DNA of 64,000 nt, from positions 26,109 through 90,108 of IMG/VR virus record IMGVR_UViG_3300033463_000062; one strand, 5' to 3'. This stretch comes from a virus (taxonomy: Duplodnaviria; Heunggongvirae; Uroviricota; Caudoviricetes). A program made the translations under genes and the position numbers. Of this stretch, positions 11,250-59,318 are shown one piece after another. Numbering within the stretch: the first letter of the stretch is position 1; each line of letters begins with the position of its first letter. Below the pieces are notes generated by a model, which was not told the DNA's origin, made no database searches, and was given only the letters and a program-made list of their open reading frames with translations.

Positions 11250-11266
11250 ACAACAAGGAGGTTACT

Positions 11267-42316: not shown

Positions 42317-42741
42317 TTGTCATTTCCAAGCAACACAGCGATACTCCCCCGGTTTGACTCTAATTCCGCTTTTGACACACGAGGTGTCCGCATCATAACA
42401 AGGGTCTGTTGCTGTAACCGGCGTTTCGTCGTAATATCTTGTTCCGACTTCTATAGGTTTTAGCTTCATTTTGTTCTCCTTTGCATAAATTCGTTTATCA
42501 TAATCCTGTTTGTAATAAGCGGGGATGCGCCACTGCTTCCAGCGATGTTCTACCGCTACTTTGTCTTCACTCCCAACTGTTTCTCTGATGTCTTGCGTGT
42601 CTTTCTTGTGTTTTTTACCTCTTTTTCCACCATGATTGGTGTCATTTTTGCACCTTTTCCCCCTTTTTTAACGCGATTTCTTACCCGAAGCTTACTTTGC
42701 AACGCGCGTGCCAGACAGCTGGTCTTCCCGGGGTGTTCTTT

Positions 42742-42805
42742 TCGTCCTAACATTTTTATACGTCCGATAATACCGAACGCTTGGTTTCACCAAAATGCGA
42801 TTATG
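42742..42805 (-). repeat. conserved two-hairpin intergenic element, copy A
   Basis: 12 nt after stop of 42814..43116; minus-strand form AATCGCATTTTGG-UGAAA-CCAAGCGTTCGGTATTATCGGACGTATAAAAATGTTAGGACGA. Confidence 0.7.
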
Positions 42806-42813
42806 ATTTTAAA

Positions 42814-43116
42814 TTAAAGCGCGTTTAACGCTGCTATATCTTCGGCAGAAAGTTTGCTGACGTCGAACATCGGCTCCTTCTGCATCGCTTTTATTTCGTT
42901 AAGCGTGTAACCCTCGAGAAGCATCTTCTTCTCGACGCAGAGTTTTGAGACCGAATTATACAGACAGCGTTTGTTGTTTACGACGGTGTCCCATATCGAC
43001 GTGTCGTCCTCTTTGAAAGCTTCGTAGCTTATGTCGTCCACCTCTTTTTCCGTTGTGGCATTTTTGATTTTTGCTTTATAGTATTTAAGTCTTTCGTTGT
43101 AAACTTCTTTTGTCAT
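42814..43116 (-). CDS. hypothetical protein
   Basis: 100 aa. Confidence 0.4.
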   Translation of the reverse strand: MTKEVYNERLKYYKAKIKNATTEKEVDDISYEAFKEDDTSIWDTVVNNKRCLYNSVSKLCVEKKMLLEGYTLNEIKAMQKEPMFDVSKLSAEDIAALNAL

Positions 43117-43301
43117 ATTATTTTCCCTTCCTGTTTGAGTTTTCTGCGAATGTTCAATCGCTCGGTCAAATCCAGATTTGTATAATCAGGATATAACCTG
43201 TAGATTGTCTCATAGTTTTTTGCCTGAATTCTGTCGTACTCCGCAAGGTTCGCTCGTGTAACCTCTTCGCGGATTGAGAATAGCTCACGCGGATACGTCA
43301 A
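43113..43301 (-). CDS. hypothetical protein
   Basis: 62 aa. Confidence 0.35.
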   Translation of the reverse strand: MTYPRELFSIREEVTRANLAEYDRIQAKNYETIYRLYPDYTNLDLTERLNIRRKLKQEGKII

Positions 43302-43501
43302 TCTTGCTCACCTCTTATTTTCGAGTCGAGTTCGTCAAACTTTTCCAAAGCTGAAGCAAGTTCGTTTGCAGAATACACATATCTTGCCGAGCCGTCTTTA
43401 AGGTAAGAACTAACTTCAACTGTAATCTCCTTCTTTTCCCAGTCAATATTCAGACTTAAAGATACGGAATGATATCCTTTGTTTGAAGCCTTAATGACCA
43501 T
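43298..43501 (-). CDS. hypothetical protein
   Basis: 67 aa. Confidence 0.35.
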   Translation of the reverse strand: MVIKASNKGYHSVSLSLNIDWEKKEITVEVSSYLKDGSARYVYSANELASALEKFDELDSKIRGEQD

Positions 43502-43979
43502 TCTTTATCGCCTCCTTCGCCCACCTTACGAGGAAGTTCATCTCCTCGTCAAATCCTCCGTCGCGTCCTACAATGAAATCAGCGTTGAAATACTCGTTGA
43601 CCCACCAATCAAACTCCCCTTTGGTTTCGGGGATGTTGTCGACGTATCCCCACTCGCCCTGAAACTCGTCGGGCATATATTCAAAAAACTTCATGGTGTC
43701 TCCGTCTACTTCTTCGTACAATTTCAAAATGCGCTCTGCATCGAGGATTTCAATTTCAAAACTGCCGTTGCCGTTGTTTGCGCATTCGTTTGCGTAAATG
43801 ATATATACACGATCTTTGGCTCCGTATACTTTGCCCGACGCAAACACCGCGTCCATTCCGGGCACGATATTCTCGTATGTTCTTTCTGTGGACTCGAGGC
43901 AAACGTATCCTTCATAGTCTTGGTCATATCCGTAGAACTGACAACCTTTGCACGAGCCTTTATTACAAATATGCGCCAT
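43491..43979 (-). CDS. hypothetical acidic protein
   Basis: 162 aa. Confidence 0.4.
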   Translation of the reverse strand: MAHICNKGSCKGCQFYGYDQDYEGYVCLESTERTYENIVPGMDAVFASGKVYGAKDRVYIIYANECANNGNGSFEIEILDAERILKLYEEVDGDTMKFFEYMPDEFQGEWGYVDNIPETKGEFDWWVNEYFNADFIVGRDGGFDEEMNFLVRWAKEAIKNGH

Positions 43980-43991
43980 AGCGTTCTCCTT

Positions 43992-44468
43992 TCAGGTTTT
44001 TATGATTGTATTCTTTATGAACTCTTTTTCGTCAATCCCATTTACAGCGTCCCAAGCCGAGACGTCTGCAAAATATTCTGTGCGGTATTCGTCGTATAAA
44101 TCGTATGGTTGAATAACTCTTGCTATAGCTCTTAACGTAACTGTTGTGCTACCAACCCATTCGACGAACGACCATAATATTCCGTCTTTCTCAAATAATA
44201 CGCCATGCTCGTTTAAATCAGAGATATCGTAATAATTTGATATAATGCCACTTTCGAGGAAGTGAAATCCGTGTTGAAGCGCAAGATCTATACAGCTACT
44301 TGCCCATACTCTTGCGGTTATATTGCAAAAGCGGGAGGTGTTTGTAAGCCGTTCGACTTTCATCCCGTCACCCCGTTTATCGCGTCCCAAGCGGACACTG
44401 CGTCGAATTCCGGTTCGAACACGTTTCCGACTTCTCGCAGGATTATGCCGGATGAATCGTTGAGCCAA
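43992..44468 (-). CDS. hypothetical protein (paralog of 44360..44698)
   Basis: shares ...SAWDAVNGI... block with neighbour. Confidence 0.4.
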   Translation of the reverse strand: MAQRFIRHNPARSRKRVRTGIRRSVRLGRDKRGDGMKVERLTNTSRFCNITARVWASSCIDLALQHGFHFLESGIISNYYDISDLNEHGVLFEKDGILWSFVEWVGSTTVTLRAIARVIQPYDLYDEYRTEYFADVSAWDAVNGIDEKEFIKNTIIKT

Positions 44469-44698
44469 CGTATAAACACATACAATTTGTTGTCTTTTAC
44501 GTACATTGTGCTGAAATCGTTAACCAATTCTCCATCGGAAATATCGACAAGATTCGATATGCTTATAGCGTATACTCTTTCATATCCGAGGCGCTTGGCA
44601 ACTGTTTCGCACCACTCTTCGCCTCCCTCGCGTGGAAGAAAAACGTCGACCGGTGTGTATGGATTGTAAGTTTTTTCTACTATCATATCACACCTCAA
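44360..44698 (-). CDS. hypothetical protein (paralog of 43992..44468)
   Basis: ...VSAWDAINGV... block. Confidence 0.4.
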   Translation of the reverse strand: MRCDMIVEKTYNPYTPVDVFLPREGGEEWCETVAKRLGYERVYAISISNLVDISDGELVNDFSTMYVKDNKLYVFIRWLNDSSGIILREVGNVFEPEFDAVSAWDAINGVTG

Positions 44699-44913
44699 AC
44701 GTCGAATTCGTACAGCCAGTCTGAGAAATGTTCGAGAATGTTGCCGTCAACATTCATCCACTGTGCACAGAACTCGTCCTCGGAGTATCTTCTATAGAAA
44801 TCCTCAATGACACCCGCCGATACATATACAGTTCCGTGCGCCCTTAGGTAATCCATAATCTTTTTCATATCGTCGGGAAACTCAAAGTGTTCGTATTTTT
44901 CGTAAATTTTCAT
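44695..44913 (-). CDS. hypothetical protein
   Basis: 72 aa, RBS GAGGAGAACGATATG. Confidence 0.4.
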   Translation of the reverse strand: MKIYEKYEHFEFPDDMKKIMDYLRAHGTVYVSAGVIEDFYRRYSEDEFCAQWMNVDGNILEHFSDWLYEFDV

Positions 44914-45186
44914 ATCGTTCTCCTCTAATGTAATCCAATAAAAGTGTGCTACAGCAGTTACTACCGATGTATTGGACTCAATTAACTCCGCCTACACCGC
45001 TCTGTGTGTTTCGTTTGTCAAAGTTTCTCGAATCTTTTTTTCCTTTTTTCTTTTCAAAGTCTTGATTTCTTGTACTCATTGTCGGTATTTCTTCTGCGTT
45101 TTAGCCAATTCTGACAGTTCTTTGCGATTTCTGTATCTATTTTGGCAACTGTTGCTATGTGCCCATAGTCTCCTCAGCTCGATCTG

Positions 45187-45250
45187 TCGTCCTAACATTG
45201 CGGTGCGTCCGATAAAACCGAACGCTCAACTTGCGTTGAAATACGATTAC
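45187..45250 (-). repeat. conserved two-hairpin intergenic element, copy B
   Basis: begins at stop of 45263..45784; hairpin 1 is CAAC-GCAA-GTTG. Confidence 0.7.
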
Positions 45251-45262
45251 ATTATAAAATGG

Positions 45263-45784
45263 TTATTTGTTTTTCGTTTTCTTCTCGCTGAAATCTAAGC
45301 GATAAAGCCCCGACTGAACCCGCCAGATTCCATCGGTACCACGGACAACGTGGTCTATTTGGTGTACGGATTTTTCCCAGCAGTTCAACTTCCACTTGTA
45401 AAAGATTTCTACGGCAAAAACTCCAGAAGAGTTTTGTTCGGTGAACCCGATTTTTATATCATAATCACCCTTTTCTTCGTGTACCTTTTTTACCATAGAT
45501 ATAGCTTCATCGACCGTTATTCTGATTGCTTTCCCACCTGACGCCGACCAGTGCGGGCACCAGTGCTCAAACACATCCGCATAATGCATATACTGCGGAG
45601 GCTGTATATATGTGCAAAAATCGCTTGCTCCCCTCATTTCGCGATGCTTGCAATTAAGGCACACACGCTTTCTCTCTTCGCCCATATTTTCATCAAACTC
45701 CTTTCTGATTACCCTCATTTTGCCAATAATCCGTAGTAAACACAGGGCGGTTTTCTGTCTTTTACGTTCGGTTCCTTCCAACAT
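45263..45784 (-). CDS. hypothetical Cys/His-containing protein
   Basis: 173 aa. Confidence 0.4.
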   Translation of the reverse strand: MLEGTERKRQKTALCLLRIIGKMRVIRKEFDENMGEERKRVCLNCKHREMRGASDFCTYIQPPQYMHYADVFEHWCPHWSASGGKAIRITVDEAISMVKKVHEEKGDYDIKIGFTEQNSSGVFAVEIFYKWKLNCWEKSVHQIDHVVRGTDGIWRVQSGLYRLDFSEKKTKNK

Positions 45785-45942
45785 TTGTCGCTAACGCATC
45801 TCTTTTTCATCTCATCGTTTGGACATTTGTAACAGCCGGGACTTTTTAAGCAGTATTCGGCAAGCTCTTTTTCTGTCGGTGTAAGTTCTGTTTGATTCTT
45901 CATGTCATATTCATATCCTCTCCGACAATATTTATCTGGCAA
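45715..45942 (-). CDS. Cys-rich small protein
   Basis: 75 aa. Confidence 0.35.
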   Translation of the reverse strand: MPDKYCRRGYEYDMKNQTELTPTEKELAEYCLKSPGCYKCPNDEMKKRCVSDKCWKEPNVKDRKPPCVYYGLLAK

Positions 45943-46436
45943 CTCTTCATCACCTCGAGCGCCGCCTTGTGTCTTTCCGGCGTCGAACCGGCGCAGCAGG
46001 ACGCGTCAACCGTAATTTCAACTTCGGGGCACGTTGCCTTGATGAGAAGTGCGTTTGAAATAACGCAGATATCGGTACACAGACCGACGATTTCGATGCG
46101 GTCATATTTTTTGCATTTGTTGGCAAGCTCTAAACTGCCAAATGTCTTTTTGTTGACAACTTCGCTTTTGTCGTCTTCAACATTCAACAGAGCGTCACGC
46201 ACCTTGACGTCGAATGTCCACCCTTCCGTTCCGTAGATACAGTGCTTTACGGGCAAATGTTTGCCTTCTGTGGTTTCAAGATAGTCTTCCTCATGTTCAT
46301 CCTTGGTCGCAAAAACAAAGCCGTCCCAGTTGTGGATTTTCTCAACGACTTTCGGAACGATTGCCCGCGCTTCTGCGGAGCCGAGCGAGCCGTCGATGAA
46401 ATCTTTTTGCATATCGACCACGATCAGCGCTTTCAT
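45900..46436 (-). CDS. isochorismatase-family cysteine hydrolase (nicotinamidase PncA-like)
   Basis: ORF 45900..46541 trimmed to MKALIVVDMQKDF; Asp (VVDMQ), Lys and Cys (GLCTDICV) catalytic triad pattern. Confidence 0.65.
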   Translation of the reverse strand: MKALIVVDMQKDFIDGSLGSAEARAIVPKVVEKIHNWDGFVFATKDEHEEDYLETTEGKHLPVKHCIYGTEGWTFDVKVRDALLNVEDDKSEVVNKKTFGSLELANKCKKYDRIEIVGLCTDICVISNALLIKATCPEVEITVDASCCAGSTPERHKAALEVMKSCQINIVGEDMNMT

Positions 46437-46777
46437 ATTTCGTTCCTTTCCTTTCTCAAGTGGTACTTTATCGTCTGTCGAAGCCATTCTGTCATTGTAT
46501 TCCAGTTGAGGTTCAGTGCGCTGACGCTGTCGTCGAGCCATTCGGCGAATAAGAAGTTAAGCAGATCATCTTTCTTGACAAGCCATTCTGCCTCGAATTC
46601 GAGGAACTTGTCCTGAATATAATCTGCCATTAGCATTTCCGCATAATTCTCGAAGAAGCAGATTTCGTAAAATCTGTCGTAAACCTCAGGCGTTTCTTTC
46701 TTGAGCATTTTACTGCGGAACTTGCAAAGTTCGTTTGACACCTTGTCGACAAGATTAAAATATAATTCGTCAGTCAT
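46433..46777 (-). CDS. hypothetical protein
   Basis: 114 aa. Confidence 0.4.
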   Translation of the reverse strand: MTDELYFNLVDKVSNELCKFRSKMLKKETPEVYDRFYEICFFENYAEMLMADYIQDKFLEFEAEWLVKKDDLLNFLFAEWLDDSVSALNLNWNTMTEWLRQTIKYHLRKERNEI

Positions 46778-46789
46778 TTTAGTCCTCCT

Positions 46790-47170
46790 TCATAAAAGAT
46801 TAGTTTGATTTTCCCACGGCGCTGTGACAAGATATGACGGCGAACCGTTATAGGATACGTAGCCGTTCTCCTCATACCAGTTGTCGTTTTTGTATATAAA
46901 ATGCCACATCTCGTTGTCTTCGCCAACGAATTCTATCTCGCCGGCGGAAATTTTATATTCTTTGTTAAGCTCGACTAACGCTTTTTTGACATCATCTTCG
47001 TAGTAGATCGAGTCGTCGCTGATCTCCACAGATAACGGGTGTGCTCTTGATATATACACATCATAAAAAACTTCTTCAAGAATTGTTTTTACATCCTCGT
47101 TGACCTCCGCCCAGTTTTCTTCGGTGGTCAAAAAATCAATATACCCTTTTGCTTGCGCGCTGTATCCCAT
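46790..47170 (-). CDS. hypothetical acidic protein
   Basis: 126 aa. Confidence 0.4.
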   Translation of the reverse strand: MGYSAQAKGYIDFLTTEENWAEVNEDVKTILEEVFYDVYISRAHPLSVEISDDSIYYEDDVKKALVELNKEYKISAGEIEFVGEDNEMWHFIYKNDNWYEENGYVSYNGSPSYLVTAPWENQTNLL

Positions 47171-47188
47171 ATTTCCCTCCTTACATAG

Positions 47189-47974
47189 TTATACTTCTGT
47201 ATAATAAACGCGTTCTTCTATCAACTCTCGTTGTTCAGTAAATATCGGTGGTTCTTCGTCTATCACCCACACGTTGGGAGTTTTAAATACGCAAACTCCG
47301 CGTTTAAAGGCTGCTGGTTGTTTATTGAAGTTTATATTATGCTGCGAAAATAGCATTTCCTGAATATCATTGCAAGATTTTTTATTCAGTTCTTTATGCG
47401 AAAAATAACATTGTCCGAGCATTTGTATGGCGTTTCTGGTTGCATCTTGCTGACGCCAAATAAAGTAGTTTGTGACTTCCTCTTTCGGCAGATTAAACAC
47501 TCTTGCATCGAATATAGCGCCCGTGGCGTTCCGGTATGCGTTAGCAAGTGAGTCTTCTTCCGCAGACGTGTGCCACGCTTCATCGTAATCGTCGAACCAC
47601 TTACCGGCTTCCTCGTCAAAAAACTTGGCGAAGGCGCTCGTTGCTATTGACGCAGCGACAGAACACATTTTTTGTATTCTGTAGTCGAACCAAGCGCTTG
47701 TCGAAAGCGTGTCATAATCAGTCAGAAGAAGAGATATTTCGTCACTTTGCGTGTATCCGAATTTGCATCCTTGAATATTCTGGCACAGATACTGAGTAGT
47801 GCGATTCATTGCATTATGAAAAACGCGATCATATGGCTTCGTAAAGTGTTTGGTGAAAGTGTGAAATGCTTTGCCGTCTATTCGGACTATCACAGGTGTT
47901 CTTCTTGATAAACGAGTTTCAGATCGTTCTTCATAAAACGACTTCATTCTATCCCCGAGCGAATCTTTTTTCAT
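47189..47974 (-). CDS. Thg1-like protein (tRNA 3'-5' nucleotidyltransferase family, TLP)
   Basis: ORF trimmed to MKKDSL preceded by GGGAGG RBS; motifs VIVRIDGKAFHTFT, GYTQSDEISLL, NYFIWRQQDA, FSQHNINFN align with Thg1 RLDGRNFHRF, GQSDEYSFV, YLSWRQADCH, FSEFNINYN. Confidence 0.75.
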   Translation of the reverse strand: MKKDSLGDRMKSFYEERSETRLSRRTPVIVRIDGKAFHTFTKHFTKPYDRVFHNAMNRTTQYLCQNIQGCKFGYTQSDEISLLLTDYDTLSTSAWFDYRIQKMCSVAASIATSAFAKFFDEEAGKWFDDYDEAWHTSAEEDSLANAYRNATGAIFDARVFNLPKEEVTNYFIWRQQDATRNAIQMLGQCYFSHKELNKKSCNDIQEMLFSQHNINFNKQPAAFKRGVCVFKTPNVWVIDEEPPIFTEQRELIEERVYYTEV

Positions 47975-48000
47975 ATATTCCTCCCTTTTGTATGTATCAA

Positions 48001-49116
48001 TCAGTAAAATATTTCCGGTATTGCCTCCGACGGCACCTCGTGAAGCATCGCAGCCGTCCACACAACGGATTTCTGCATACTTGTCGGCTTCCAACGGTCG
48101 TTTACATCGAACTTTGATTTGTAGGACAAATAATATCCTGTTCCGTAGAGATAATGATTTGCGACGTACCCCATATCGACAAGAGTGTCGAGCGCTTTGC
48201 CGTATTCTCCGCCCCACGTCTTTTCTCCGTTAGAAAAAGCCATCACGGGCTTCAGCCCTTCTTCTTGCGATTTATAGCAAAGGATCCTGTAAGCAAGCTC
48301 CTCGTGACCGGCGAAATCGCATGGGTAAAAATCTCCATTCGGAGCGATAATGCCTGTCCAGCCCGGGATTGAATTATCAATAACCGGCTCAAGCCCGAAC
48401 TCGCATCTGGCGTTGTTCCGTTTTGAAAACTTTTCCGGTTCGCGGGTTTCGACTTGGATCTCGCGATCTGCCGACAAGCGGTATTTAGCGTTGCGCATTT
48501 CGAATCCCGGAGAACTTTTCGTTGCTTCATATATATTCTCCCAGAATTCATCATCTGTCACCGGTATTCTGCACTGGTTGGAGCAGATATAAATGAGCTC
48601 CGGATCTTCGAGCAACCATAAACCAGCCTTTGTCGGGTCTTGTGCGGCGGGCAGAGGTTCAATATATTCCCCGAGCCGAACCTTATCTTGATCCTTATCG
48701 CTATATTGGAACCATATCGAACATTCCTCGGCGGTGTGGACGTTCATTTCTCTCGCTTTTCGGTAAGATTTCACCGTACTCCACTTGTCTACATAGTATA
48801 TGCCGTTACGCTGAATATCCGCTTGAATTTTCGCTATTTCATGCTTCTTGCTGACTTCTTGAAGTTTGTCGGTTATAGGGCGATAACGAGCGTTGTCATC
48901 GACAAGCTCAAACGTATTCACACCGACGAACTTTTTGCGACCCTCAAGAATGTCGTTAACTGTCTTGGTTATCTCATCTTCGGAATACCCAACCATACAA
49001 GAACCAATCAGTTCGCGAACGACCGGGTATGGCTTGTCCTCGTCCCAGAACCAAGAACGTGCGAATTCGGTAAGCCACTCGCCGTCTACCGAAAAATGTA
49101 AAACCTCAGTTTCCAT
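48001..49116 (-). CDS. hypothetical protein
   Basis: 371 aa. Confidence 0.45.
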   Translation of the reverse strand: METEVLHFSVDGEWLTEFARSWFWDEDKPYPVVRELIGSCMVGYSEDEITKTVNDILEGRKKFVGVNTFELVDDNARYRPITDKLQEVSKKHEIAKIQADIQRNGIYYVDKWSTVKSYRKAREMNVHTAEECSIWFQYSDKDQDKVRLGEYIEPLPAAQDPTKAGLWLLEDPELIYICSNQCRIPVTDDEFWENIYEATKSSPGFEMRNAKYRLSADREIQVETREPEKFSKRNNARCEFGLEPVIDNSIPGWTGIIAPNGDFYPCDFAGHEELAYRILCYKSQEEGLKPVMAFSNGEKTWGGEYGKALDTLVDMGYVANHYLYGTGYYLSYKSKFDVNDRWKPTSMQKSVVWTAAMLHEVPSEAIPEIFY

Positions 49117-49452
49117 TGTACCTCCTAATTTTATTTATAGTTATCGAGCCATAGGACTTTCACCTATAGGAGCAAAGGTTGGATTCGGGTGCGCATCCAC
49201 TACCAACGGTTTCTAACCACTTTCTACTATTGTTGACTTTGCTTTTTCGTGCTTCATATTTTTAAGAGACTTTCTTTTTGGTCGGGATATTGTGGGATTC
49301 GAACCCCTCCTCCGCCTCCTCTGGCGGTATGCTGCCTCCACTTACACCATCACCCTAATCTCTGCCACGCTTTACCGAGCTGTACGGGCTCTTACGTAAA
49401 GCTTGTACGTGTGGCATACTACACACGGCTTTATTACTCACTACTCGATTTT

Positions 49453-49731
49453 TTATATCGACATTACGTTTTCGGTTATTTCTTTCGGTTTGCCATACAA
49501 GAAGTTTCCGACATCGTGAATATTTGTTATCTTGTCAATCGACCAACCATTATACAACTCAATTGCGCTCTCAAGACTCACTGCAATCAAAGCTTCGAGT
49601 TGTGCCCCTGCGAAGCCGTAGTATTTGCTGAATTCTATAAGTGCATCTTTTGCGCTCTGCGCCTTGACCCAGTAAACATAGCGCAAACTCCCCGTTTCGT
49701 TAACTCTGATTACAAATTCGTATAACCTCAT
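49453..49731 (-). CDS. hypothetical protein
   Basis: 92 aa. Confidence 0.4.
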   Translation of the reverse strand: MRLYEFVIRVNETGSLRYVYWVKAQSAKDALIEFSKYYGFAGAQLEALIAVSLESAIELYNGWSIDKITNIHDVGNFLYGKPKEITENVMSI

Positions 49732-49742
49732 ATATAATCTCC

Positions 49743-50276
49743 TTATTCAATATACATTGGATCAGTCGGTTTTGTTTCGTCTTTTTCATAGTGTGAACAT
49801 TTCCGAAGATATTTAAAGTTATCGCCAGAACGCTCTCTTGTTGACTGCATCCAATTTCCTTTATATTCACAAGCTATATAAGTTCCGTATCCCGTGTCAC
49901 AACAATTGTAATATTTGCACTGTTGTAAACATTTGTATTTTTTAAGAGCCTCTTGTTTTCTTTTTTGATATCTCTCTTCGGCTTCTTTACGATATTCGTC
50001 ATACTCTTTTTGCAACATTTTCTCCGTCCACGGAGAAAGATTAAAAAACTTCCAGACCGGCATTCCATCTAATATGTCTTCTGTTACGCCTTTTGCAACT
50101 TCCTCTGGCGAACAATTCATAAATCTGACCATGACTCTGTTGCTGTTTATAAATGCAACAAGCGCCTCAACGTTTATATCATCTGTGCCATATTCGATTT
50201 GACCATGGATCTTCAACATTTCAACCAGTTCGTAAAATCTGGCGTATGGCATATCGTCTATATATTCGCCAAACAT
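49743..50276 (-). CDS. hypothetical Cys-rich protein
   Basis: 177 aa. Confidence 0.4.
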   Translation of the reverse strand: MFGEYIDDMPYARFYELVEMLKIHGQIEYGTDDINVEALVAFINSNRVMVRFMNCSPEEVAKGVTEDILDGMPVWKFFNLSPWTEKMLQKEYDEYRKEAEERYQKRKQEALKKYKCLQQCKYYNCCDTGYGTYIACEYKGNWMQSTRERSGDNFKYLRKCSHYEKDETKPTDPMYIE

Positions 50277-50639
50277 TTATATATCTTCCTTGAAATCTTC
50301 TGCGCGGAATCCGTTTCTATACTCTCCGCTATCACCTCTGACTATACAAAGCACCATAGCCGTTAACATATAGTCGTAGACGTTGGTTTTAAATGCACCG
50401 TAACTTGCTATTCTGGCGCTTTCCTGCATTTGCCTTAGCTGCATTGACGGTTTATCTGCGTGATCGATAAAATCGCAGAATACTTCAAATATGATGCCTT
50501 CTATGACTCCATCGGTGTAAACATTGCGATCACAGCCGCTGTATTTCATCATATATGCAATGGCGGCTTCGCGATACGAAGGATATTCGCCGCCGTGATG
50601 TTTCAAATAGCGGATCATTCCTACTGTCTTTTTTTCCAT
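50277..50639 (-). CDS. hypothetical protein
   Basis: 120 aa. Confidence 0.4.
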   Translation of the reverse strand: MEKKTVGMIRYLKHHGGEYPSYREAAIAYMMKYSGCDRNVYTDGVIEGIIFEVFCDFIDHADKPSMQLRQMQESARIASYGAFKTNVYDYMLTAMVLCIVRGDSGEYRNGFRAEDFKEDI

Positions 50640-50651
50640 AAAGCCTCCATT

Positions 50652-51032
50652 TTATCCGCCGAACACGATTTCATCAAACAGCGCGAACTGAATGATTGCG
50701 TCTGCGGTTCCGGCGTCATACTCGCTGGAATCGAAATCTCCGTCGAAATAGCCCTCTTCAAAGGCTTTTTTTATGCCGTTGAGTAATTTGTCGAGCGTGA
50801 GGCTCCACTTGTCGTCACTTTCTGCATCGTACAGGATAAGCTCTCCGCCTCTCGAAATCTGATCTGAGGCATATTCGCCGAGATAATCGCCCACGACATC
50901 GACTCTGTCGCACCAGTACGTGATGCCGCCTTCAAGAGCGTCGCACATAAGGTCGTCTATGTTTTCGTCTGTTACTTTTATCGTCTTTTTGACTGTCAAA
51001 TTATGCATACCATTCTCCTTCTGGGAACTCAA
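50652..51032 (-). CDS. hypothetical acidic protein
   Basis: 126 aa. Confidence 0.4.
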   Translation of the reverse strand: MSSQKENGMHNLTVKKTIKVTDENIDDLMCDALEGGITYWCDRVDVVGDYLGEYASDQISRGGELILYDAESDDKWSLTLDKLLNGIKKAFEEGYFDGDFDSSEYDAGTADAIIQFALFDEIVFGG

Positions 51033-51303
51033 TCCCTACTGTTTTATAAAGCGTTTCTAACGCTTCGATTTCTGATTTTGATAACCTCACAGGATTTCCG
51101 TCGATTGCTTCTCCGAGCTGGCTCAAAGCGTCGTTCCACGACATATCCCTTGCGTTTTCCAAGTCGTACACGGCGTAGTACGGCTCGTCAATCCACGTCT
51201 TTTCGTAAACAAGAAACCAACAGTCTGTTTTTGTATTTCTTGTCGCGTGTTCCAACGCGGTGTACTGTTCGTCTGATAATGTCATTGAATGAATTTTGTT
51301 CAT
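51001..51303 (-). CDS. hypothetical protein
   Basis: 100 aa, RBS AAGGAGGAGAACGATG. Confidence 0.4.
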   Translation of the reverse strand: MNKIHSMTLSDEQYTALEHATRNTKTDCWFLVYEKTWIDEPYYAVYDLENARDMSWNDALSQLGEAIDGNPVRLSKSEIEALETLYKTVGIEFPEGEWYA

Positions 51304-51529
51304 CGTTCTCCTCCTTTTTATTTTTACACAATCCTAAGTTATAGATGGCGCCTTGACCAAGGAGTCCTCCTCGTCATCGAGATGCCTCGGTAATCACGTT
51401 TTTATACCTCTTTAGGGGGTCGTTTTTCACATTTTTTCAATTTATATACCCTTAATTTGAGGTTTCACCATCAGGATTACTTCCATCTCGGACTGCAGCA
51501 TCCTTCGGATCCTGATACCTGCTCCTTCT

Positions 51530-51593
51530 TCGTTCTAACATTTTTATACGTTCGATAAGACCGAACGCTTGCGTTTCCGCAAAATACGATTGT
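51530..51593 (-). repeat. conserved two-hairpin intergenic element, copy C (directly after recombinase stop)
   Basis: minus-strand form CACAATCGTATTTTGCG-GAAA-CGCAAGCGTTCGGTCTTATCGAACGTATAAAAATGTTAGAACGA. Confidence 0.75.
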
Positions 51594-51598
51594 GTTTC

Positions 51599-52585
51599 TT
51601 ATTTGTTAAGCTCATTCAAGAGCTCGTCTTTCGTTTGTAGTAATAATTCGTACAGCTCGTTGTTTGATACAACCTTAGGAGCCACAAGTTCATCGCCGTC
51701 CCACTTTCCAAGCGTAAAGTTGGACACCGCTTTCCTCGCTTCGTCGCACTGTTCTTTCATAATGCCAAGATACCGGCTCGTTGTCGTTGCGTTCTCGTGA
51801 TTTAACAACGTCTGAATTACCGCAAAATTCTTCTCGTTGATTGACGCGTCGTAAGTGCACTCAATAACCTTGACGAAAGTCTTTCTCATAGAGTGCGTTC
51901 CGAGGTGGGCTTCAATCCCGAGCGCTTTCTGCGCTGCAGTTAATATCTTGTAATACGCTTTCTCCGTGATGTGCTCGCCGCTTCTCTTGGTCTGGAATAC
52001 ATAGTCATTCAGGATTATTCCCTCGGGAAACAACTCGTTGACATATTCTTCCATAGCGGTCTTTATCGCCTCGGTTATCAGCGCATTGTTAATCTTTGTC
52101 GTTTTTTTCTCGAGCACCGGTATTCTCTCGCGGAACTCGTAGTCGTTGTTGTAAATGTGATAGAATTTCAAGCGAACGATGTCTGACGCTCTGACGCCGA
52201 GGTTACAACCGACCATCCACATTGTAGCGTTACGGATACCCTCAGGAGTTTTTTCCTTGAGCCAGTCATAAACACGCTTGAAGTCCGTGTATGAATTGAT
52301 TGCCTCAGATGCGGATGCAAGTTTCCGTCCGTTGACGTTAACACCGCTCAACATTCGTTCAGTTTTTTCTGCGTTCTCCTTGTCTCTTTTACCCTGACGT
52401 TCTTCTTTCGTCAAGACTTTTTTGTATTGACCGTTGTCGATTGCGTCAACCAACTCCTGATACTTTAACTCATAAGTCAGCTGCTTTCTCTTAGCTTTTT
52501 CGAGTTCTTTTTCGAGGTAGTCGATTTGTATCTGGCGTTCCATTGCAATCTGCTGCCAGTCAACCATTACCCTTGTTTCTTCCAT
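51599..52585 (-). CDS. tyrosine recombinase / integrase family protein
   Basis: C-terminal catalytic region with HSMRKTF (HxxR) and NATTTSRYLG (catalytic Tyr); R...K...HxxR...Y pattern. Confidence 0.65.
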   Translation of the reverse strand: MEETRVMVDWQQIAMERQIQIDYLEKELEKAKRKQLTYELKYQELVDAIDNGQYKKVLTKEERQGKRDKENAEKTERMLSGVNVNGRKLASASEAINSYTDFKRVYDWLKEKTPEGIRNATMWMVGCNLGVRASDIVRLKFYHIYNNDYEFRERIPVLEKKTTKINNALITEAIKTAMEEYVNELFPEGIILNDYVFQTKRSGEHITEKAYYKILTAAQKALGIEAHLGTHSMRKTFVKVIECTYDASINEKNFAVIQTLLNHENATTTSRYLGIMKEQCDEARKAVSNFTLGKWDGDELVAPKVVSNNELYELLLQTKDELLNELNK

Positions 52586-52970
52586 TTCGATCCCTCCGTA
52601 TTCCTTTGTACTAAAACATTTCTTCTGTGCCCTCTTGCGTCTAATATAATCAAACGCGTCTTGCCGACCATATTTAGTCTGCTTAGGTATCTTTTCAATA
52701 CTTAAGGGAAGACTATGAATTGTTCACACAATCCTATGAGAATAAAAACGGTTCTGCCCACAGGGTGCCGGCATCCAACTTTGTTTGGACATTGTTCGAT
52801 TGTGTCCATTTCCTACGCTTAATTGGGAAATCTTTTTTAACTTTTTACTTCTTTGAGGTTCGTTTTTCTTGATTTCCACCCTTTCTTCATTGCGACGGTT
52901 GCTCTCGAATCTTCATTCCCCGTGTGACCCCAGACGACGTTCTTGAGATCCTGATCTGCCTCCTGATCTC

Positions 52971-53035
52971 TCGTCCTAACATTTTTGTACGTTCGATAAG
53001 ACCGAACGCTCAGCTCTTGCTGAAATACGATTGTG
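52971..53035 (-). repeat. conserved two-hairpin intergenic element, copy D (upstream of recombinase, after stop of 53039..53266)
   Basis: hairpin 1 CAGC-AAGA-GCTG, hairpin 2 CGTTCGGTCTTATCGAACG. Confidence 0.75.
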
Positions 53036-53038
53036 CTT

Positions 53039-53266
53039 TTATCTTTGGACAAACTCGCAAATCTCACCCGTCTCAGGATTGTAAAGCTCTCCCGAGAACA
53101 TAAGCGGGACGTTGTATGCAAGTCTGCATTCTTTCCTGATACGATATTTTAAATTGGCGACTGCTTTTCGCGGCGTTTCCGCAAGTGTTGTTGCAACGTA
53201 GTTGTTACGCGTAATCAATGTTCCGTCACGCTCAACTCGTCCTGTAAACACCCATTTTTCTTTCAT
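53039..53266 (-). CDS. hypothetical protein
   Basis: 75 aa. Confidence 0.4.
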   Translation of the reverse strand: MKEKWVFTGRVERDGTLITRNNYVATTLAETPRKAVANLKYRIRKECRLAYNVPLMFSGELYNPETGEICEFVQR

Positions 53267-53362
53267 AAGTTACCTCCAATTGTGGTTCGAAAACTTAATC
53301 TCATGAGAAACTTCCATTCTGGAAGTTTCGCATCTGATTAAGTTTTGAACGATATTTGTTGT

Positions 53363-53412
53363 GTTTTACGTTCGGTAAAACCAAACGCCCGTTTTCTAAA
53401 CGAAATATTCGT
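53363..53412 (-). repeat. diverged copy F of the two-hairpin element (directly after RT stop)
   Basis: retains ACGTTCGGTAAAACCAAACG (hairpin 2 analogue) and CGTTT-AGA-AAACG (hairpin 1 analogue). Confidence 0.5.
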
Positions 53413-53418
53413 AACTTT

Positions 53419-54558
53419 TTATGCGCTCTTTATTGCGCTTATTATCGTGTCGTACACATTCTTGTTGAACTTCAACGACAGCTTATTCAGAATCTGTTCT
53501 ACGGCTTCCTTTTCAACCATTCTACAATAGTTCAGGTTGCCGAGCATTTCCTGCAACTCTCCGAGTTCCCATTTTTCTTCCTTTGCATCGGACATCATAA
53601 ACGAGAACAGCGTTGCTTTCAGGATCTTCTTTCTCTTATAGCCGACCGTAATGTTACCGTCTTTATTCAGCATAAGACCAAGGTTCCAGTTGCGACCTGC
53701 CGATGAACCGTATCTCGTCTTTTCTGCGTTCAGACTGAACGGCGTTTCCCATTTCGCAAGCGTGTTCTTGAGAAACGTCTGAACTTCCGTCCACTTAAAA
53801 TCATACTCGGAAGTTATTGTGATATCGTCTGCATATCTCGTATAGACGAGGTGCGGCGTGTGTTCGCGGCACCAACGCGCTATCTCGAGGTCGAGCGGTA
53901 TCATCATGATGTTAGTTATCATCGGGCTAATCGGACTGCCCTGCGGAAGTCTGCCCTGATACATACATATATCCAGAGCCTTCTCGAAATACTCTTTGCC
54001 TTTTACAGAAGTTAATATCTCGTTGTACGGATATATCATTGAAAACATTTTCAAAACAAATTCTTTCGTGGTGTTCGGGAAGAACTTGGAGAAGTCAAAC
54101 TTAGCAAACCACCTCGAGTGGTTGCTCTGATGACGTTGCATCGCGTATAGACAACATCTATGCGGAACGTATGCAAAGGCACAAGTATGATACGGTGCGC
54201 CGATTATATTCTCGAATATAAACTTGAGTTGACGCTGCGCGTTCTTCAGTTCTTCGTCAGGCTTATCTATCTGTCTGTGTCCACCAGACTTCTTCGGTAT
54301 ATTGTACGGATGATAATGACTGTCGATTCCGCTCTCGAACAGTTCTTTGTGGTTTTCGATGAAGTTGTGGAGCGCGTCCACCATCTTTGTCAACTTCAGA
54401 TTCGCTAACATTCTTATCGGAATTTCTTCCGTCGTGAATGTTACTGTGTCGTATGTGTTTCTGTCGGGCATTAGAGCCGACTCTGTGACGCCGTTGATTA
54501 CGTCCCAAGCAGTTATCTGCTTTTCGCGCTGCTTTTTTGCATAAGTGATATAATACAT
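53419..54558 (-). CDS. reverse transcriptase (non-DGR; retron/group-II-like RT domain without maturase or RNase H)
   Basis: 379 aa; motifs SGGHRQIDKP, RLPQGSPISPMITN, YTRYADDITI (YADD box). Confidence 0.8.
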   Translation of the reverse strand: MYYITYAKKQREKQITAWDVINGVTESALMPDRNTYDTVTFTTEEIPIRMLANLKLTKMVDALHNFIENHKELFESGIDSHYHPYNIPKKSGGHRQIDKPDEELKNAQRQLKFIFENIIGAPYHTCAFAYVPHRCCLYAMQRHQSNHSRWFAKFDFSKFFPNTTKEFVLKMFSMIYPYNEILTSVKGKEYFEKALDICMYQGRLPQGSPISPMITNIMMIPLDLEIARWCREHTPHLVYTRYADDITITSEYDFKWTEVQTFLKNTLAKWETPFSLNAEKTRYGSSAGRNWNLGLMLNKDGNITVGYKRKKILKATLFSFMMSDAKEEKWELGELQEMLGNLNYCRMVEKEAVEQILNKLSLKFNKNVYDTIISAIKSA

Positions 54559-54811
54559 TTTCCCTTTTCCTTTCTTTACCTATCCTATGAGGTTTTGAAT
54601 GCCCCTTCAAGCTTCTGAAGTTGATGTCTGGCACTCGTGTCGAGATAAATTTTTATTAAAATTAGAACTTTTTTGGATTATCTTCGCCAACTTTATTTTT
54701 TTAATTGGGAATCTAACTTCACTTTCTGGTTTTGTTTTGCCATTTTTTCTTGCGCAATGCCTCTGCACCTGTTGCTGCGTCACCAGCTCTGACTCCTCGT
54801 CCCAGTCCTCT

Positions 54812-54875
54812 TCGTTCTAACTTTGTGTTGCATCCGATAAGACCGAATGCTTTGCTTTCGCAAAAATGCGATAGG
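54812..54875 (-). repeat. conserved two-hairpin intergenic element, copy E (between RNase H and RT)
   Basis: hairpin 1 TTTGC-GAAA-GCAAA; hairpin 2 GCATTCGGTCTTATCGGATGC with a compensatory G-C to A-T change relative to other copies. Confidence 0.7.
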
Positions 54876-54876
54876 T

Positions 54877-55305
54877 TTATAATGTTTGTCCTGTTGCGAG
54901 GAAATCGCATCTTTCGTTGTACTGATTTCCCGCGTGTCCCTTCGTCCATTCAAACGTCACATTGTGAATGTCGAGGATATTCAAAAGTTCTTCCCACAAA
55001 TCTGCGTTCGCTGCGGGTTTGTTGTCTTTTTTGTACCAGCCGCGTTCTTTCCACGACTGTACCCAGCCCTTTCCGATTCCGTCAACAACGTACTTACTGT
55101 CCGTTATCAGCTTGACCGAACACGGTCTGTTCAGAGCGTTCAGCGCGTTGATGACCGCCGCGAGTTCCATACGGTTATTCGTCGTGTCTTCTTCGGCTCC
55201 GAAGATCTCCTTGACTTTATCTCCATATTTCAGTACGGCTGCCCAACCGCCCTTGCCGGGATTTCCCGAGCAGGCTCCGTCGGTATAAATCTCCACGTTT
55301 GTCAT
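54877..55305 (-). CDS. rnhA: ribonuclease HI
   Basis: 142 aa; [10 protein letters not shown]...E...D...[11 protein letters not shown] catalytic DEDD-type RNase H signature. Confidence 0.8.
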
Positions 55306-56042
55306 AACTCGTCAATCCTGAACTGGAATGGGTTTACGTAAATCATTCTTTTCAGTTCTCCTTTCTTTACAAAATTTATAAAGTTGCAAACTCCTACGTT
55401 GCAAACTTCTCTCACCGTTGGTGCGACTCCGAGAACAACTCCGCACGCAGACACCGGTGTTGCTTCCGCAGCTTCTTCGTGAGAATAGTTCATCGTCTTG
55501 AGATAGTTTATGACGTCTTTCATCTTGCCCCACTCGGAAGCGTAATGCATAGCGTCCTCAAGCCGTGTTCTGAAATCAAACACCGCTTTTATTTCTGTGT
55601 TATATTTGTTTGCCTCGCAAATTTCTCTGCGCAGGTCTATATTGTCAACCGCAAGGAACACATATCCGTTGAGCGGTTGTTCTGTATACTTGCCCAGAAC
55701 TTCAACCTCGACCTCGGGGTTGATGTCTTCAAGCATTTTCTTCACCTCTGTCGCTTTGTCCTCTCCGACCGAATGCGAGAAGAACATCTGATTGGCGATA
55801 TTGTGTTCTTCCACAAGGTCGAAATCATACAGAGAAAATTTCCTTACTCCGAGCCTCGCAAGATTTTCTGCGAGCGTTGAGCCAACGGAACCGCATCCGA
55901 TTATGTGACACGTTCCGTCAACTTTTTCAGGGGCAAAGTATTCGTAGCTCTTCTGTAAGTTCATAACCTTCGTCCTCCCATTCTCTTTCGCGCAGATACC
56001 ATAACTCTGCGTGCGCCGTCTCAGCTTCTTCTTCGTCGCCAT
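55302..56042 (-). CDS. E1-like (ThiF/MoeB family) adenylating enzyme
   Basis: Rossmann GxGxxG (IIGCGSVGS), [14 protein letters not shown] motif of ThiF/MoeB/E1, downstream Cys (VSACGVV); likely start at internal Met MNLQK (55964), overlapping JAB gene. Confidence 0.7.
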
Positions 56043-59232: not shown

Positions 59233-59318
59233 TTGGCAGGAGTTGCAGGATTTGAACCTGCGAATCTTCGGACAAAGCCGGAGTGTTTCCGAATGTGTTA
59301 ACCGCTTCACCAAACTCC
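59233..59318 (-). tRNA. tRNA-like element 1 (86 nt, perfect acceptor and T-arm, encoded CCA, non-canonical anticodon region)
   Basis: minus strand AGGAGTT/AACTCCT 7-bp acceptor, D-arm GTG-AAGCGGTTAA-CAC, T-arm GCAGG-TTCAAAT-CCTGC, then G-CCA; central region forms CGGA-AACAC-TCCG hairpin rather than a 7-nt anticodon loop. Confidence 0.4.

Follow-up and report, generated by a model that had tools for sequence, protein, structure and literature searches.

A retron normally has one non-coding RNA (ncRNA) for its reverse transcriptase (RT). That RNA (msr-msd) consists of hybridising terminal inverted repeats, one to three msr hairpins and a long stable msd stem-loop, and the residues named as most conserved in retron RTs are the H of NAxxH and the G of VTG (PMC7736814). 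In the phage-encoded RT systems of the UG27 family (Mestre et al. 2022, PMC9226505; bioRxiv 10.64898/2026.09.22.753630, September 2026), the templates for short cDNA hairpins are arrays of ncRNA units that share a structure and vary in sequence; the same preprint notes clades whose units escape its UG27 model. The locus described here, found in a 64,000-nt stretch of phage DNA (the window), brings together in one gut phage a retron-type RT and seven retron-like units. Such an arrangement has not been described for retrons, and its only known analogue is in another phage enzyme family, UG27. With a probability that we put at about 0.6, the units are retron-like RNAs at scattered sites that serve the phage RT as templates, the link to the enzyme being drawn from their architecture and co-location.

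The two-hairpin element

An earlier note on this DNA had listed six copies of a 65-nt two-hairpin element. Five strong copies do lie at 42742-42805, 45187-45250, 51530-51593, 52971-53035 and 54812-54875, and the diverged copy at 53363-53412 is genuine (26.9 bits with covariance model R1, 46.9 bits with model R2). The total of six is too low: a covariance-model search, the kind of check that the note had proposed, recovers all six and adds a seventh copy at 19400-19466, upstream of RtcB, which the note had missed (33.8 bits with R1, 49.1 bits with R2). Model R2, run with its filters off, returns exactly these seven in the window, and every one is a minus-strand copy. At three or fewer mismatches, six sites match the hairpin-2 core GCRTTCGGTNTTATCGRAYG where 0.13 are expected, and none of 100 shuffles reaches six. 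As the note had also stated, the elements follow stop codons, starting 0-14 nt 3' of them.

Scoring of covariation used 27 copies, which come from the window and four related phage genomes. It gave 0.72; shuffles gave 0.24, none of the 500 reaching the observed value, and slid controls gave 0.04-0.12. Pairing is kept in 99.5% of cells, and 12 of the 14 pairs change on both sides. The compensatory stem changes and G-U wobbles claimed earlier are both found in the copies. The alignment used (A4) was fitted to the model's structure, which we count against the retron-like reading; RNAalifold, run independently, predicts the same two hairpins. In these 27 copies the non-Watson-Crick pairs are all G-U when read on the minus (sense) strand, and the base pair at the foot of hairpin 2 is G-U in 25. 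Hairpin 1 often carries the GNRA loop noted before, and in one case a UUCG loop. Covariation and sense-strand G-U pairs together support the note's view of a folded single-stranded nucleic acid of the sense strand and not a protein-binding duplex site.

A long-range stem closes a larger unit

What the note described makes up the 5' domain of a larger unit, 150-330 nt long, that occupies the entire intergenic gap, in the order a1, G, hairpin, hairpin, tail, variable region, G, a2. The a1 segment, 7-13 nt directly 5' of a near-invariant G, pairs with a2, which lies 130-310 nt away, just ahead of the next gene's ribosome-binding site. The sequences of a1 and a2 are unlike in every copy and their complementarity is always kept: the a1 of each unit scores better with its own downstream spacer (mean 18.7) than with the spacers of other units (13.4, sd 2.9), and 0 of 10,000 permutations reach the own-spacer mean. 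Unconstrained minimum-free-energy (MFE) folds of whole units from the window and three relatives (L001, L003, L005) recover the a1/a2 stem and both hairpins; two units of L001 have identical 59-nt cores, yet different a1/a2 pairs, each self-consistent. Single stems are short, and some are not significant alone, a second point that we count against the retron-like reading. G stands directly after a1 in at least 21 of the 27 units and directly before a2 in about 20, and a conserved single-stranded tail lies 3' of the two hairpins. The earlier proposals for a self-contained 65-nt element (a boxB-like antitermination site, a processing site, a recombinase target) are not supported, the element being one domain of something longer.

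The seven units are spread along 35 kb, separated by unrelated genes, and each is encoded on the minus strand. The short ones carry a long, nearly perfect hairpin. Unit G (19324-19474, 151 nt) lies between an ORF at 19489-19788 and RtcB; its parts are a1 19466-19474 (GACAACGCG), core 19400-19466 and a2 19324-19332 (CGCGUUGUU), its variable part is rich in hairpins, and its MFE fold recovers a1/a2 and both hairpins of the core. Unit F (53267-53417, 151 nt) begins right after the RT stop codon, with a1 at 53411-53417 (AAGUUAC), G at 53410, core at 53355-53419 and a2 at 53267-53273 (GUAACUU) abutting the next ATG; its long, nearly perfect msd-like hairpin, at about 53283-53352, also gives spurious miRNA-type Rfam matches.

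In the five long units (270-330 nt) the variable region, about 200 nt, is branched and lacks a single long hairpin. Unit A (42497-42807, 311 nt) has a1 at 42799-42807 (AUCAUAAUC), G at 42798, core at 42738-42809 and a2 at 42497-42505 (GAUUAUGAU), about 27 nt before an ATG at 42469, and a basic 65-aa ORF (42556-42753) lies inside it; unit B (44926-45254, 329 nt) has a1 at 45245-45254 (UAAUGUAAUC), G at 45244, core at 45183-45255 and a2 at 44926-44935 (GAUUACAUUA), 12 nt before an ATG at 44913. Units C and D enclose a recombinase gene. Unit D, upstream of it (52726-53036, 311 nt), comprises a1 53029-53036 (GCACAAUC), G 53028, core 52967-53039 and a2 52726-52733 (GAUUGUGU), and unit C, which begins right after the recombinase stop codon (51326-51595, 270 nt), comprises a1 51588-51595 (ACACAAUC), G 51587, core 51526-51598 and a2 51326-51333 (GAUUGUGU). 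Unit E (54578-54876, 299 nt) is right upstream of the RT gene: a1 is 54870-54876 (ACCUAUC), G 54869, core 54808-54880, and a2, 54578-54584 (GAUAGGU), ends 19 nt before the RT ATG.

Inverted termini, the recombinase gene between units D and C, the bounding of cassettes of one to several small genes, the difference in content between relatives, and a GTTAGRAC that agrees with the attC core GTTRRRY in six of its seven positions could all be taken as marks of DNA-level elements, either miniature mobile elements with terminal inverted repeats or attC-like folded single-strand sites at which the nearby tyrosine recombinase would shuffle gene cassettes. The terminal repeats differ in every copy, however, and therefore offer a transposase nothing to recognise. 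Every copy is oriented with transcription; the mismatches are all G-U on the sense strand, and loops of the GNRA and UUCG types belong to RNA. The recombinase is no integron integrase (it scores 16 bits, and the cut-off is 265), in line with the earlier note's exclusion of attC; the inverse core is absent at the 5' end, and unit G is far from any recombinase. We give DNA-level elements the slimmest chance of all the readings weighed here.

The location of the elements at gene boundaries, and the conservation of hairpin 2 and the tail within the genome, as in phage promoters, might suggest instead transcription signals: factor-dependent terminators, promoters for a phage-specific polymerase or sigma factor, or put- or nut-like RNA antiterminators. 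The put sites of HK022, two per genome and just downstream of promoters, are likewise two adjacent RNA hairpins of about 65-70 nt that act in cis in a phage transcript, but they have neither a closing long-range stem nor an RT. The note had discounted canonical terminators and sigma-A promoter spacing, and the elements are indeed neither canonical terminators nor sigma-70 promoters: they show no recurrent U-tract and no recurrent promoter hexamers, predicted promoter-like sites occurring at chance frequency in the region. No RNA polymerase gene is found among the window proteins scanned, and TATAAAAA is missing from copies B and E. A covarying a1/a2 stem 130-310 nt away and the association with an RT would also be left unexplained, so that we regard transcription signals as very improbable. 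The promoter-early stem-loops (PeSLs) of T4-type phages, promoters with a hairpin that act through DNA homology and bound accessory-gene cassettes, resemble the units as repeated intergenic elements punctuating variable cassettes of small phage genes; PeSLs lack the long-range covarying stem and the RT association.

The reverse transcriptase and its relatives

The presumed partner of the units is the RT encoded at 53419-54558 on the minus strand (379 aa, active site YTRYADD, Pfam RVT_1). By its sequence it belongs to the retron clade: the PADLOC match is to RT_II-A (2e-53), with retron RTs filling all of the top 25 matches; the NCBIfam match is to retron_St85_RT (1e-56, 192 bits, under the cut-off of 235); and its best PDB matches are the RTs of retrons Ec83, Ec86, Ec67 and Ec78, in alignments that run through the thumb. 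Of the motifs NAxxH and VTG it retains the H and the G, within AMQRH and NLG; the departure from the exact motifs and the score under the NCBIfam cut-off also count against the retron-like reading. An RNase H gene (54877-55305, minus strand; Pfam RNase_H, 7e-45) adjoins the RT in the window and in L037, L038, L039, L040 and L041. Upstream lies a minus-strand module present in every relative examined (55302-57904), composed of p427 (56621-57904), p235 (55927-56634) and a ThiF/E1-like protein (55302-56042).

In most of the relatives examined (RT identity 36-66%), units stand on either side of the RT gene. The window and 13 relatives (L005, L036, L037, L039, L041, L053, L055, L056, L058, L059, L060, L062, L065) have a core 250-350 nt ahead of the RT start codon, 10-30 nt past the stop codon, or in both places. 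In the distant clade L042-L047, with RTs at 36-40% identity, both sides of the RT carry diverged units that keep this plan, a1(..AAU)-G ... UUAG-a2(AUU..), and L010, which was found through the DNA pattern alone, also has an RT and an integrase beside its two matches. No relatives without an RT were found, and the association is thus one seen solely among the RT-carrying relatives examined. The earlier note had listed the RT as a mere neighbour gene; the adjacency stands, and architecture and constant association now point to the units as templates for it.

Several features invite the suggestion that this is a plain UG27 system whose units are missed by the published covariance model: gut phages of Bacillota, an RT of about 380 aa beside two conserved proteins with no recognisable domains, many structurally conserved, sequence-diverse units in intergenic regions (in UG27, some in neighbouring ones) with a basal stem, a central hairpin and, in the short class, lengths near 150 nt, and an ...AUAG before a2 that resembles the UANAG half of the UG27 motif. 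The preprint's own mention of clades with units beyond its model is in keeping with this. The system nevertheless fails three UG27 features. The active site is YADD in 130 of 130 RTs of the family checked, against YSDD reported for UG27; the motif AUC-N7-UANAG is at chance level in the window and never within any unit; and the units are dispersed between genes, with no tandem array, a gene-free stretch in L039 being a tRNA cluster. The RT is far nearer to retron RTs than to Drt2 (profile matches of 1e-56 and 9e-12), no UG/Abi-class RT structure is among its PDB matches, and the two-hairpin msr-like domain, the second size class of 270-330 nt and the ThiF-like and RNase H genes of the module are further differences. 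This comparison with UG27 covers the RT motif, profiles, structure matches and the published description. A plain UG27 system is, in our estimate, distinctly improbable.

Candidate template RNAs

The published msr-msd description (PMC7736814) fits units F and G exactly, as it does the units that follow the RT in L037, L039 and L041, and the order ...GAC-G-[a2] recurs in retron Ec86, whose sequence is given in bioRxiv 10.1101/2022.06.05.494888. The likeness to retrons (Ec86/Eco1, St85/Sen2, Ec83) extends to the clade of the RT, the closing of the ncRNA by terminal inverted repeats, the unpaired G after a1 and another before a2, two msr-type hairpins followed by a single-stranded tail, the long stable hairpin of the short units, an ncRNA ending right before the RT start codon, and the involvement of an RNase H, here phage-encoded. 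The a1 side of Ec86 likewise matches the unit layout. Retrons differ in having one ncRNA per RT instead of seven, dispersed over 35 kb and on both sides of the gene; in lying in bacterial defence islands and not at a conserved position in a large phage family; and in their effectors, no recognised retron effector being present here. The variable regions of about 200 nt, which in five units have no single long hairpin, exceed any msd known to us, and the Rfam retron msr family does not match the units.

It is the architecture of the units and their constant association with a retron-type RT that lead us to read them as templates for reverse transcription, with the UG27 ncRNA arrays as the precedent (bioRxiv 10.64898/2026.09.22.753630). 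The elements would be the msr-like 5' domains of seven retron-type ncRNA units placed between early and accessory genes in a phage of Clostridia, each transcribed as part of a minus-strand message. Pairing of a1, after the upstream stop codon, with a2, before the next ribosome-binding site, would place two Gs opposite each other, the near-invariant unpaired one at the 3' end of a1 and a second at the 5' end of a2, and the two hairpins and tail that follow the first G would dock the RT. The enzyme would then copy the variable region into single-stranded DNA, starting next to a2 and, by analogy with retrons, priming from the 2'-OH of that G, and the RNase H encoded beside it would remove the template. 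Binding, cDNA synthesis, branching of the cDNA at G and a purpose for the DNA are what we infer from this layout.

The same placement would also suit cis-acting structured mRNA spacers that are never reverse-transcribed: processing or excision stems, stability elements or insulators of ribosome-binding sites, with hairpins that bind a phage protein. Each unit fills the exact gap from stop codon to next ribosome-binding site, and in most of them the start codon comes 0-30 nt after the end of a2; the units sit between cassettes of small accessory genes; and the long units have no msd-like hairpin. Left unexplained would be a layout that reproduces retron msr-msd RNA even in the two Gs bordering the closing stem, units on both flanks of a retron-type RT across lineages only 36-66% identical, and the long, nearly perfect hairpin of the short units. 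RNase III cannot use stems as short as 7-13 bp, and the a1/a2 stems are thus below its requirement. Spacers of this kind are unlikely, if far from negligible.

A folded RNA core in the minus-strand gene block

Plus-strand tail genes occupy 0.6-18 kb of the window, and a long block of minus-strand genes fills 18-64 kb. These are genes of replication and nucleotide metabolism together with small accessory genes, and among their products are DNA Pol III alpha with an intein, DnaB, primase, RtcB and a Thg1-like protein, as well as a tyrosine recombinase, a reverse transcriptase (RT), an RNase H and a ThiF-like protein. Five strong copies of a ~65-nt two-hairpin element, all on the minus strand, have exactly the boundaries assigned to them in the earlier note. 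All six copies counted there are real, including the diverged one after the RT gene, which is recovered by R1, a covariance model built from the five window copies. The count is nevertheless seven: searching the window with R1 yields a further copy at 19400-19466, upstream of RtcB, and a broader model, R2, returns exactly seven copies with filters off. The hairpin-2 core on its own occurs six times in the window at ≤3 mismatches, against 0.13 occurrences expected by chance.

The earlier note had proposed a covariance-model search, and this recovers the copies of related phages along with the seventh window copy. In these relatives, found by way of the RT protein and of DNA patterns, the element recurs with other sequences. 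Megablast of the region against GenBank phages gave no match, nor did the exact hairpin-2 pattern in IMG/VR; a degenerate hairpin-2 pattern picked out 28 loci, mostly by chance, yet two relatives, the contig of L005 and L010, are among them. In the window, Rfam at gathering thresholds finds tRNA alone and no retron msr family, and permissive Rfam scans of units C, D, E and F give chance-level matches only.

As predicted by RNAalifold, the core is a hairpin of 5 bp with a tetraloop and, directly after it, one of 9 bp with a loop of 3 nt; from an alignment of 27 copies from five genomes the program, unaided, arrives at this same structure. Pairing is standard in 99.5% of the cells of that alignment, and in 12 of the 14 pairs both partners change; covariation scores 0.72, compared with 0.24 for column shuffles (0 of 500 reach the observed value) and 0.04-0.12 for slid registers. 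The model to which the alignment was fitted was trained on the five window copies only, which leaves the remaining 22 sequences independent of that model. On the minus strand all non-Watson-Crick pairs are G-U, the pair at the base of hairpin 2 being so in 25 of 27 copies, and the loops of hairpin 1 are often GNRA and once UUCG. The core is a sense-strand RNA structure, in line with the folded nucleic acid that the earlier note had argued for from compensatory changes in the stems.

Closing stems and whole units

Downstream of each element lie 95-385 nt that hold no convincing gene and have loose collinear motifs in common. When the region upstream of the RT gene is folded, the nucleotides directly 5' of the element (a1) are found paired to a motif (a2) that shortly precedes the RT ribosome-binding site. 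Such a1/a2 pairing is present in every copy, with partner sequences that vary from copy to copy: AUCAUAAUC with GAUUAUGAU in unit A, UAAUGUAAUC with GAUUACAUUA in unit B, ACACAAUC with GAUUGUGU in unit C, GCACAAUC with GAUUGUGU in unit D, ACCUAUC with GAUAGGU in unit E, AAGUUAC with GUAACUU in unit F, and GACAACGCG with CGCGUUGUU in unit G. Unconstrained minimum-free-energy folds of whole units from the window and from three relatives (L001, L003 and L005) recover the closing stem and both hairpins. In a swap control with 27 units, a1 averages 18.7 when scored with its own spacer and 13.4 (sd 2.9) when scored with the spacers of other units, and 0 of 10,000 permutations reach the observed mean. 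L001 has two units with identical 59-nt cores, yet with different, self-consistent a1/a2 pairs.

The pairing of a1 with a2 across the spacer means that the real units are 150-330 nt long and not 65 nt; the earlier interpretation holds as to a folded RNA of the sense strand and gives way as to extent, the 65-nt element being the 5' part of a longer unit with a closing stem. Each unit extends from 0-14 nt past one stop codon, which bears out the placement directly after stop codons, to just before the ribosome-binding site of the next gene. Its layout is a1, an unpaired G, the two hairpins, a single-stranded tail, a variable region, G and a2. At least 21 of 27 units have G as the first base past a1, and this G is invariant among the five strong copies of the window; a2 is preceded by G in about 20 of 27 units, mostly in the form ..UAG or ..GUG.

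The units fall into two size classes. Units F and G, of 151 nt each, contain, between tail and a2, a single hairpin that is long and nearly perfect, as do the post-RT units of three relatives (L037, L039 and L041); units A-E, of 270-329 nt, fold into branched structures without a single msd-like hairpin. Across genomes, orthologous pre-RT units show no sequence conservation in their variable regions, and BLAST of the variable regions against the window finds neither antisense targets nor further copies. The long hairpins of post-RT units (window 53283-53352; L041, about 5800-5860; L037, about 11205-11270) have a common internal-loop motif, AUCAGAUG...CAUGAGAU, in which the 3' GAG is conserved; this motif could be a recognition or stop signal.

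A very basic 65-aa ORF (42556-42753, minus strand) lies entirely within unit A and starts from the conserved AUG of the msr-like tail, and similar short ORFs begin at the conserved tail AUG of units B, C and D. These ORFs (MLGR...) were considered as genes and set aside: they have no Shine-Dalgarno sequence, their peptides are not conserved, and the AUG is missing from copy E as well as from some relatives. In all probability they are not genes.

A role for the elements as terminator, promoter or antiterminator is very unlikely. An intrinsic terminator is a GC-rich hairpin with a U-tract behind it. A terminator scan of the minus strand makes one weak overlapping call, in copy B, while leaving the other elements uncalled; no U-tract follows either hairpin in the copies, as the earlier note had said, and the intrinsic terminator was rejected on that ground. 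Counts from the sigma-70 promoter and terminator scans are at chance level with nothing recurrent at the elements, in keeping with its statement that they do not match sigma-A promoter spacing. The signals that such functions require are absent from the scans, and the long-range stem would be left unexplained. N4-type hairpin promoters, which have a 3-nt loop, were also rejected, the G-U pairs being on the non-template strand and the phage having a tape-measure tail module; so were group I and II introns and ribozymes, since the genes on either side are complete and unrelated, each with a ribosome-binding site of its own, and a ribozyme core is lacking.

It is extremely unlikely that the units are mobile elements or attC-like sites acting at the DNA level. 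Integron attC recombination involves an integron integrase and sites with R''/R' cores (RYYYAAC...GTTRRRY). The motif GTTAGRAC does fit the R' core at 6 of 7 positions, but the 5' end has no inverse core, so that the reported lack of attC cores is upheld, and the recombinase scores 16 bits against the integron integrase model, whose cut-off is 265; it is not an integron integrase, and the attC identification was dropped. Moreover, the unit termini are copy-specific, the G-U pairs are strand-specific and the loops are of RNA type.

The reverse transcriptase and its gene neighborhood

Profile matches identify the RT (53419-54558, minus strand; 379 aa) as retron-type, a divergent relative of the retron RTs. 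The best 25 PADLOC matches are all retron RTs, headed by RT_II-A at 2e-53, and the best PDB matches are the RTs of retrons Ec83, Ec86, Ec67 and Ec78, aligned over residues 73-358 with the thumb included. The best NCBIfam model, retron_St85_RT (1e-56), gives 192 bits, which is under its cut-off of 235, and the RT is for this reason called retron-like and not a member of the curated family. The retron region X motif NAxxH (NAKIH in Ec83) reads AMQRH here, with H alone kept, and the region Y motif VTG of Ec83 reads NLG, with G alone kept; H and G are the most conserved residues of these two motifs (PMC7736814). Homologues of the RT at E ≤ 1e-20 number 4373.

The RT gene has unit E in front of it, ending 19 nt short of the ATG, and unit F behind it, starting 1 nt past the stop; both are on the RT strand. 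In all relatives examined (RT identity 36-66%) the module has the order p427-p235-ThiF-(RNase H)-[270-350 nt gap]-RT-[gap]. Covariance-model matches lie 250-350 nt before the RT start, 10-30 nt past the RT stop, or at both places, in more than a dozen distinct contigs; they are always on the RT strand, and further units are found among the downstream accessory genes. In L010, which was found by DNA pattern alone, the two matches have an RT and an integrase next to them. In the most distant clade (L042-L047) the covariance model misses the units; the RT-flanking gaps of these loci fold into the same design with another consensus: a1 ending AAU, G, two hairpins, UUAG, and a2 starting AUU. The same six loci have a close homologue of the ThiF gene, and the RT is present in every one. 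No relatives without the RT were found, so that the tie between units and RT is drawn from RT-bearing genomes.

The position of the module is conserved across a large phage family whose hosts are gut and rumen Clostridia, and the MAGs of two relatives indicate Clostridia hosts; this conserved position suggests a function that benefits the phage, rather than a cargo defence system. In the window, p427, p235 and the ThiF/E1-like gene occupy 55302-57904 (minus strand), directly upstream of the RT as in all relatives examined. Neither p427 nor p235 has a match in Pfam, PHROGs, PADLOC, NCBIfam or PDB, and none of the three proteins matches retron effector models.

Weak model matches (20-30 bits) also occur on short viral contigs, at L024 492-558, L034 512-578, L013 1903-1966 and L014 13419-13518. 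They have a similar hairpin 2, AGCAUUCGAU-UUU-AUCGAAUGC, L014 has the 5' motif AAAUCGUAUUUC with a 45-nt insertion, and no RT is visible within the short stretches examined. Gene-free stretches of L037 and L039 were considered as arrays of noncoding RNA and rejected, their contents being tRNA genes and other repeats: L039 17101-19316 is a tRNA gene cluster with repeated GGTTCGAATCC T-loops, and L037 18715-19091 holds three ~56-nt repeats, 94-130 nt apart.

Relation to retrons and to UG27 systems

Retrons, which are used as genome-editing tools, are understood to be defence systems of bacteria in which one RT goes with one noncoding RNA (ncRNA). In their msr-msd RNA, hybridising terminal inverted repeats enclose an msr with one to three hairpins and an msd that forms a long stable stem-loop, and the layout of the units is that of the msr-msd RNA so described (PMC7736814). 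The two covarying hairpins of the units correspond to an msr region, and units E and F, like retron ncRNAs, adjoin the RT on the same strand with hybridising a1/a2. The conserved G at the 3' end of retron a1, which is the branching and priming residue, is matched in position by the G of the units, at which a 2'-5' link between RT-DNA and RNA, as in the msDNA of retrons, would form; Ec86 has the same arrangement at a1. On the a2 side, a single G precedes a2 in Ec86 (...CTGAC-G-TAAGGGTGCGCA; bioRxiv 10.1101/2022.06.05.494888), as in the units here. The short units match the long stable msd stem-loop, and the long units A-E do not. One ncRNA is the norm for retrons, whereas this phage has seven units for one RT, and the tripartite defence retrons combine RT and ncRNA with an effector, whereas no recognised retron effector is present here. 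A single ncRNA and an effector are typical of defence retrons and not part of the molecular definition. The literature yielded no report of a retron with several ncRNAs, nor of this phage family.

The UG27 RT systems of gut prophages are reported to have variable arrays of ~150-nt units that are conserved in structure and diverse in sequence; the central hairpins of these units are reverse-transcribed into cDNA hairpins of 50-100 nt, and cDNA synthesis requires the RT and two accessory proteins without recognisable domains (bioRxiv 10.64898/2026.09.22.753630, 24 September 2026). An ncRNA at UG27 had been predicted earlier (Mestre et al. 2022). The existence of these arrays raises the prior for phage RTs that use multi-unit RNA templates, and the parallels are strong enough that membership in UG27 was tested. 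The domain-less p427 and p235, conserved beside the RT, recall the two accessory proteins, bORF and sORF. In contrast, the active site is YADD in 130 of 130 RTs of the present family, whereas YSDD is reported for UG27 (class 2 UG/Abi). The UG27 motifs around the central hairpin are AUC-N7-UANAG and UUYA; the window has 6 occurrences of the former, where 7.0 are expected, and none of them is inside a unit, the ...AUAG before a2 being the sole reminiscence of the UG27 unit motif. UG27 units form a tandem array in one long intergenic region, whereas the units here are dispersed and separated by genes. Finally, the RT resembles retron RTs far more than Drt2, whose profile matches it at only 9e-12, against 1e-56 for the retron profile. 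For these reasons (YADD, a motif at chance level, dispersed units and an RT closer to those of retrons) the locus is not filed under UG27, from which it appears distinct by UG27's published features and the Drt2 profile. The RT family may have a distant relationship to UG27.

Probable templates and primers for a phage reverse transcriptase

The units are best read, with a probability of roughly 0.6, as templates and primers for the phage RT, that is, as retron-like template RNAs. The architecture of the units and their location beside the RT are established; RT binding, cDNA synthesis, branching and a biological function are inferred, and would proceed from there as follows: the a1/a2 stem would set the priming G beside the template start, the two hairpins and the tail would dock the RT, the variable part would be copied by the RT into single-stranded DNA (ssDNA), and the adjacent RNase H would trim the template. 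Weighing against this reading are the five long units, which have no single msd-like hairpin, the one ncRNA that is normal for retrons, and the divergence of the RT, which has no recognised effector at its side. The units might instead be purely cis-regulatory RNA spacers, and their positions between stop codon and ribosome-binding site fit; this is unlikely, since it leaves the retron-like design and the association with the RT unexplained.

Read as template RNAs, the units would constitute a retron-like, multi-template and phage-borne feature, parallel to the UG27 arrays yet distinct from UG27. More tentatively, with slightly less belief than doubt, the RT may represent a retron-derived phage lineage, separate from UG27, for which many dispersed intergenic msr-msd-like units serve as templates, so that spacers of the phage's early polycistronic mRNAs would give rise to different branched ssDNAs. 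Candidate functions are counter-defence decoys, mRNA processing driven by RT and RNase H, and donors for the exchange of accessory-gene cassettes.

If the template reading is true, a retron-type RT in a fixed position with seven or more template-like RNAs would be a different, multi-template and phage-serving use of retron chemistry; together with the UG27 arrays, it would suggest that RT-made ssDNA has been recruited by phages more than once, and the role of phage ssDNA hairpins would become a general question. A natural RT able to use many templates with nothing in common but a 65-nt handle and a closing stem would also be a useful chassis for multiplexed ssDNA production in vivo. The covariance model can annotate seemingly empty gaps of 150-330 nt in these phage genomes.

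Other genes in the window

An adenylosuccinate-synthetase-like gene at 30909-32090 (minus strand) scores 106 bits against a PurA cut-off of 402, with a weak PurZ match (47 against 300), and might belong to a 2-aminoadenine (Z-base) pathway. The gene for the DNA polymerase III alpha subunit (19752-23438, minus strand) has its intein splicing domain at residues 776-878. Genes of RNA-repair type encode the RtcB ligase, with unit G directly upstream, and the Thg1-like 3'-5' polymerase, and there is also a tRNA-Arg(CCG) (18084-19292, 47189-48217 and 59234-59319, respectively; all minus strand). The peptide motif AWD(A/V)INGV, near the N-terminus of the RT (54485-54510), is also found at the C-termini of the small paralogous ORFs 44360-44698 and 43992-44468 (at 44367-44392 and 44032-44057).
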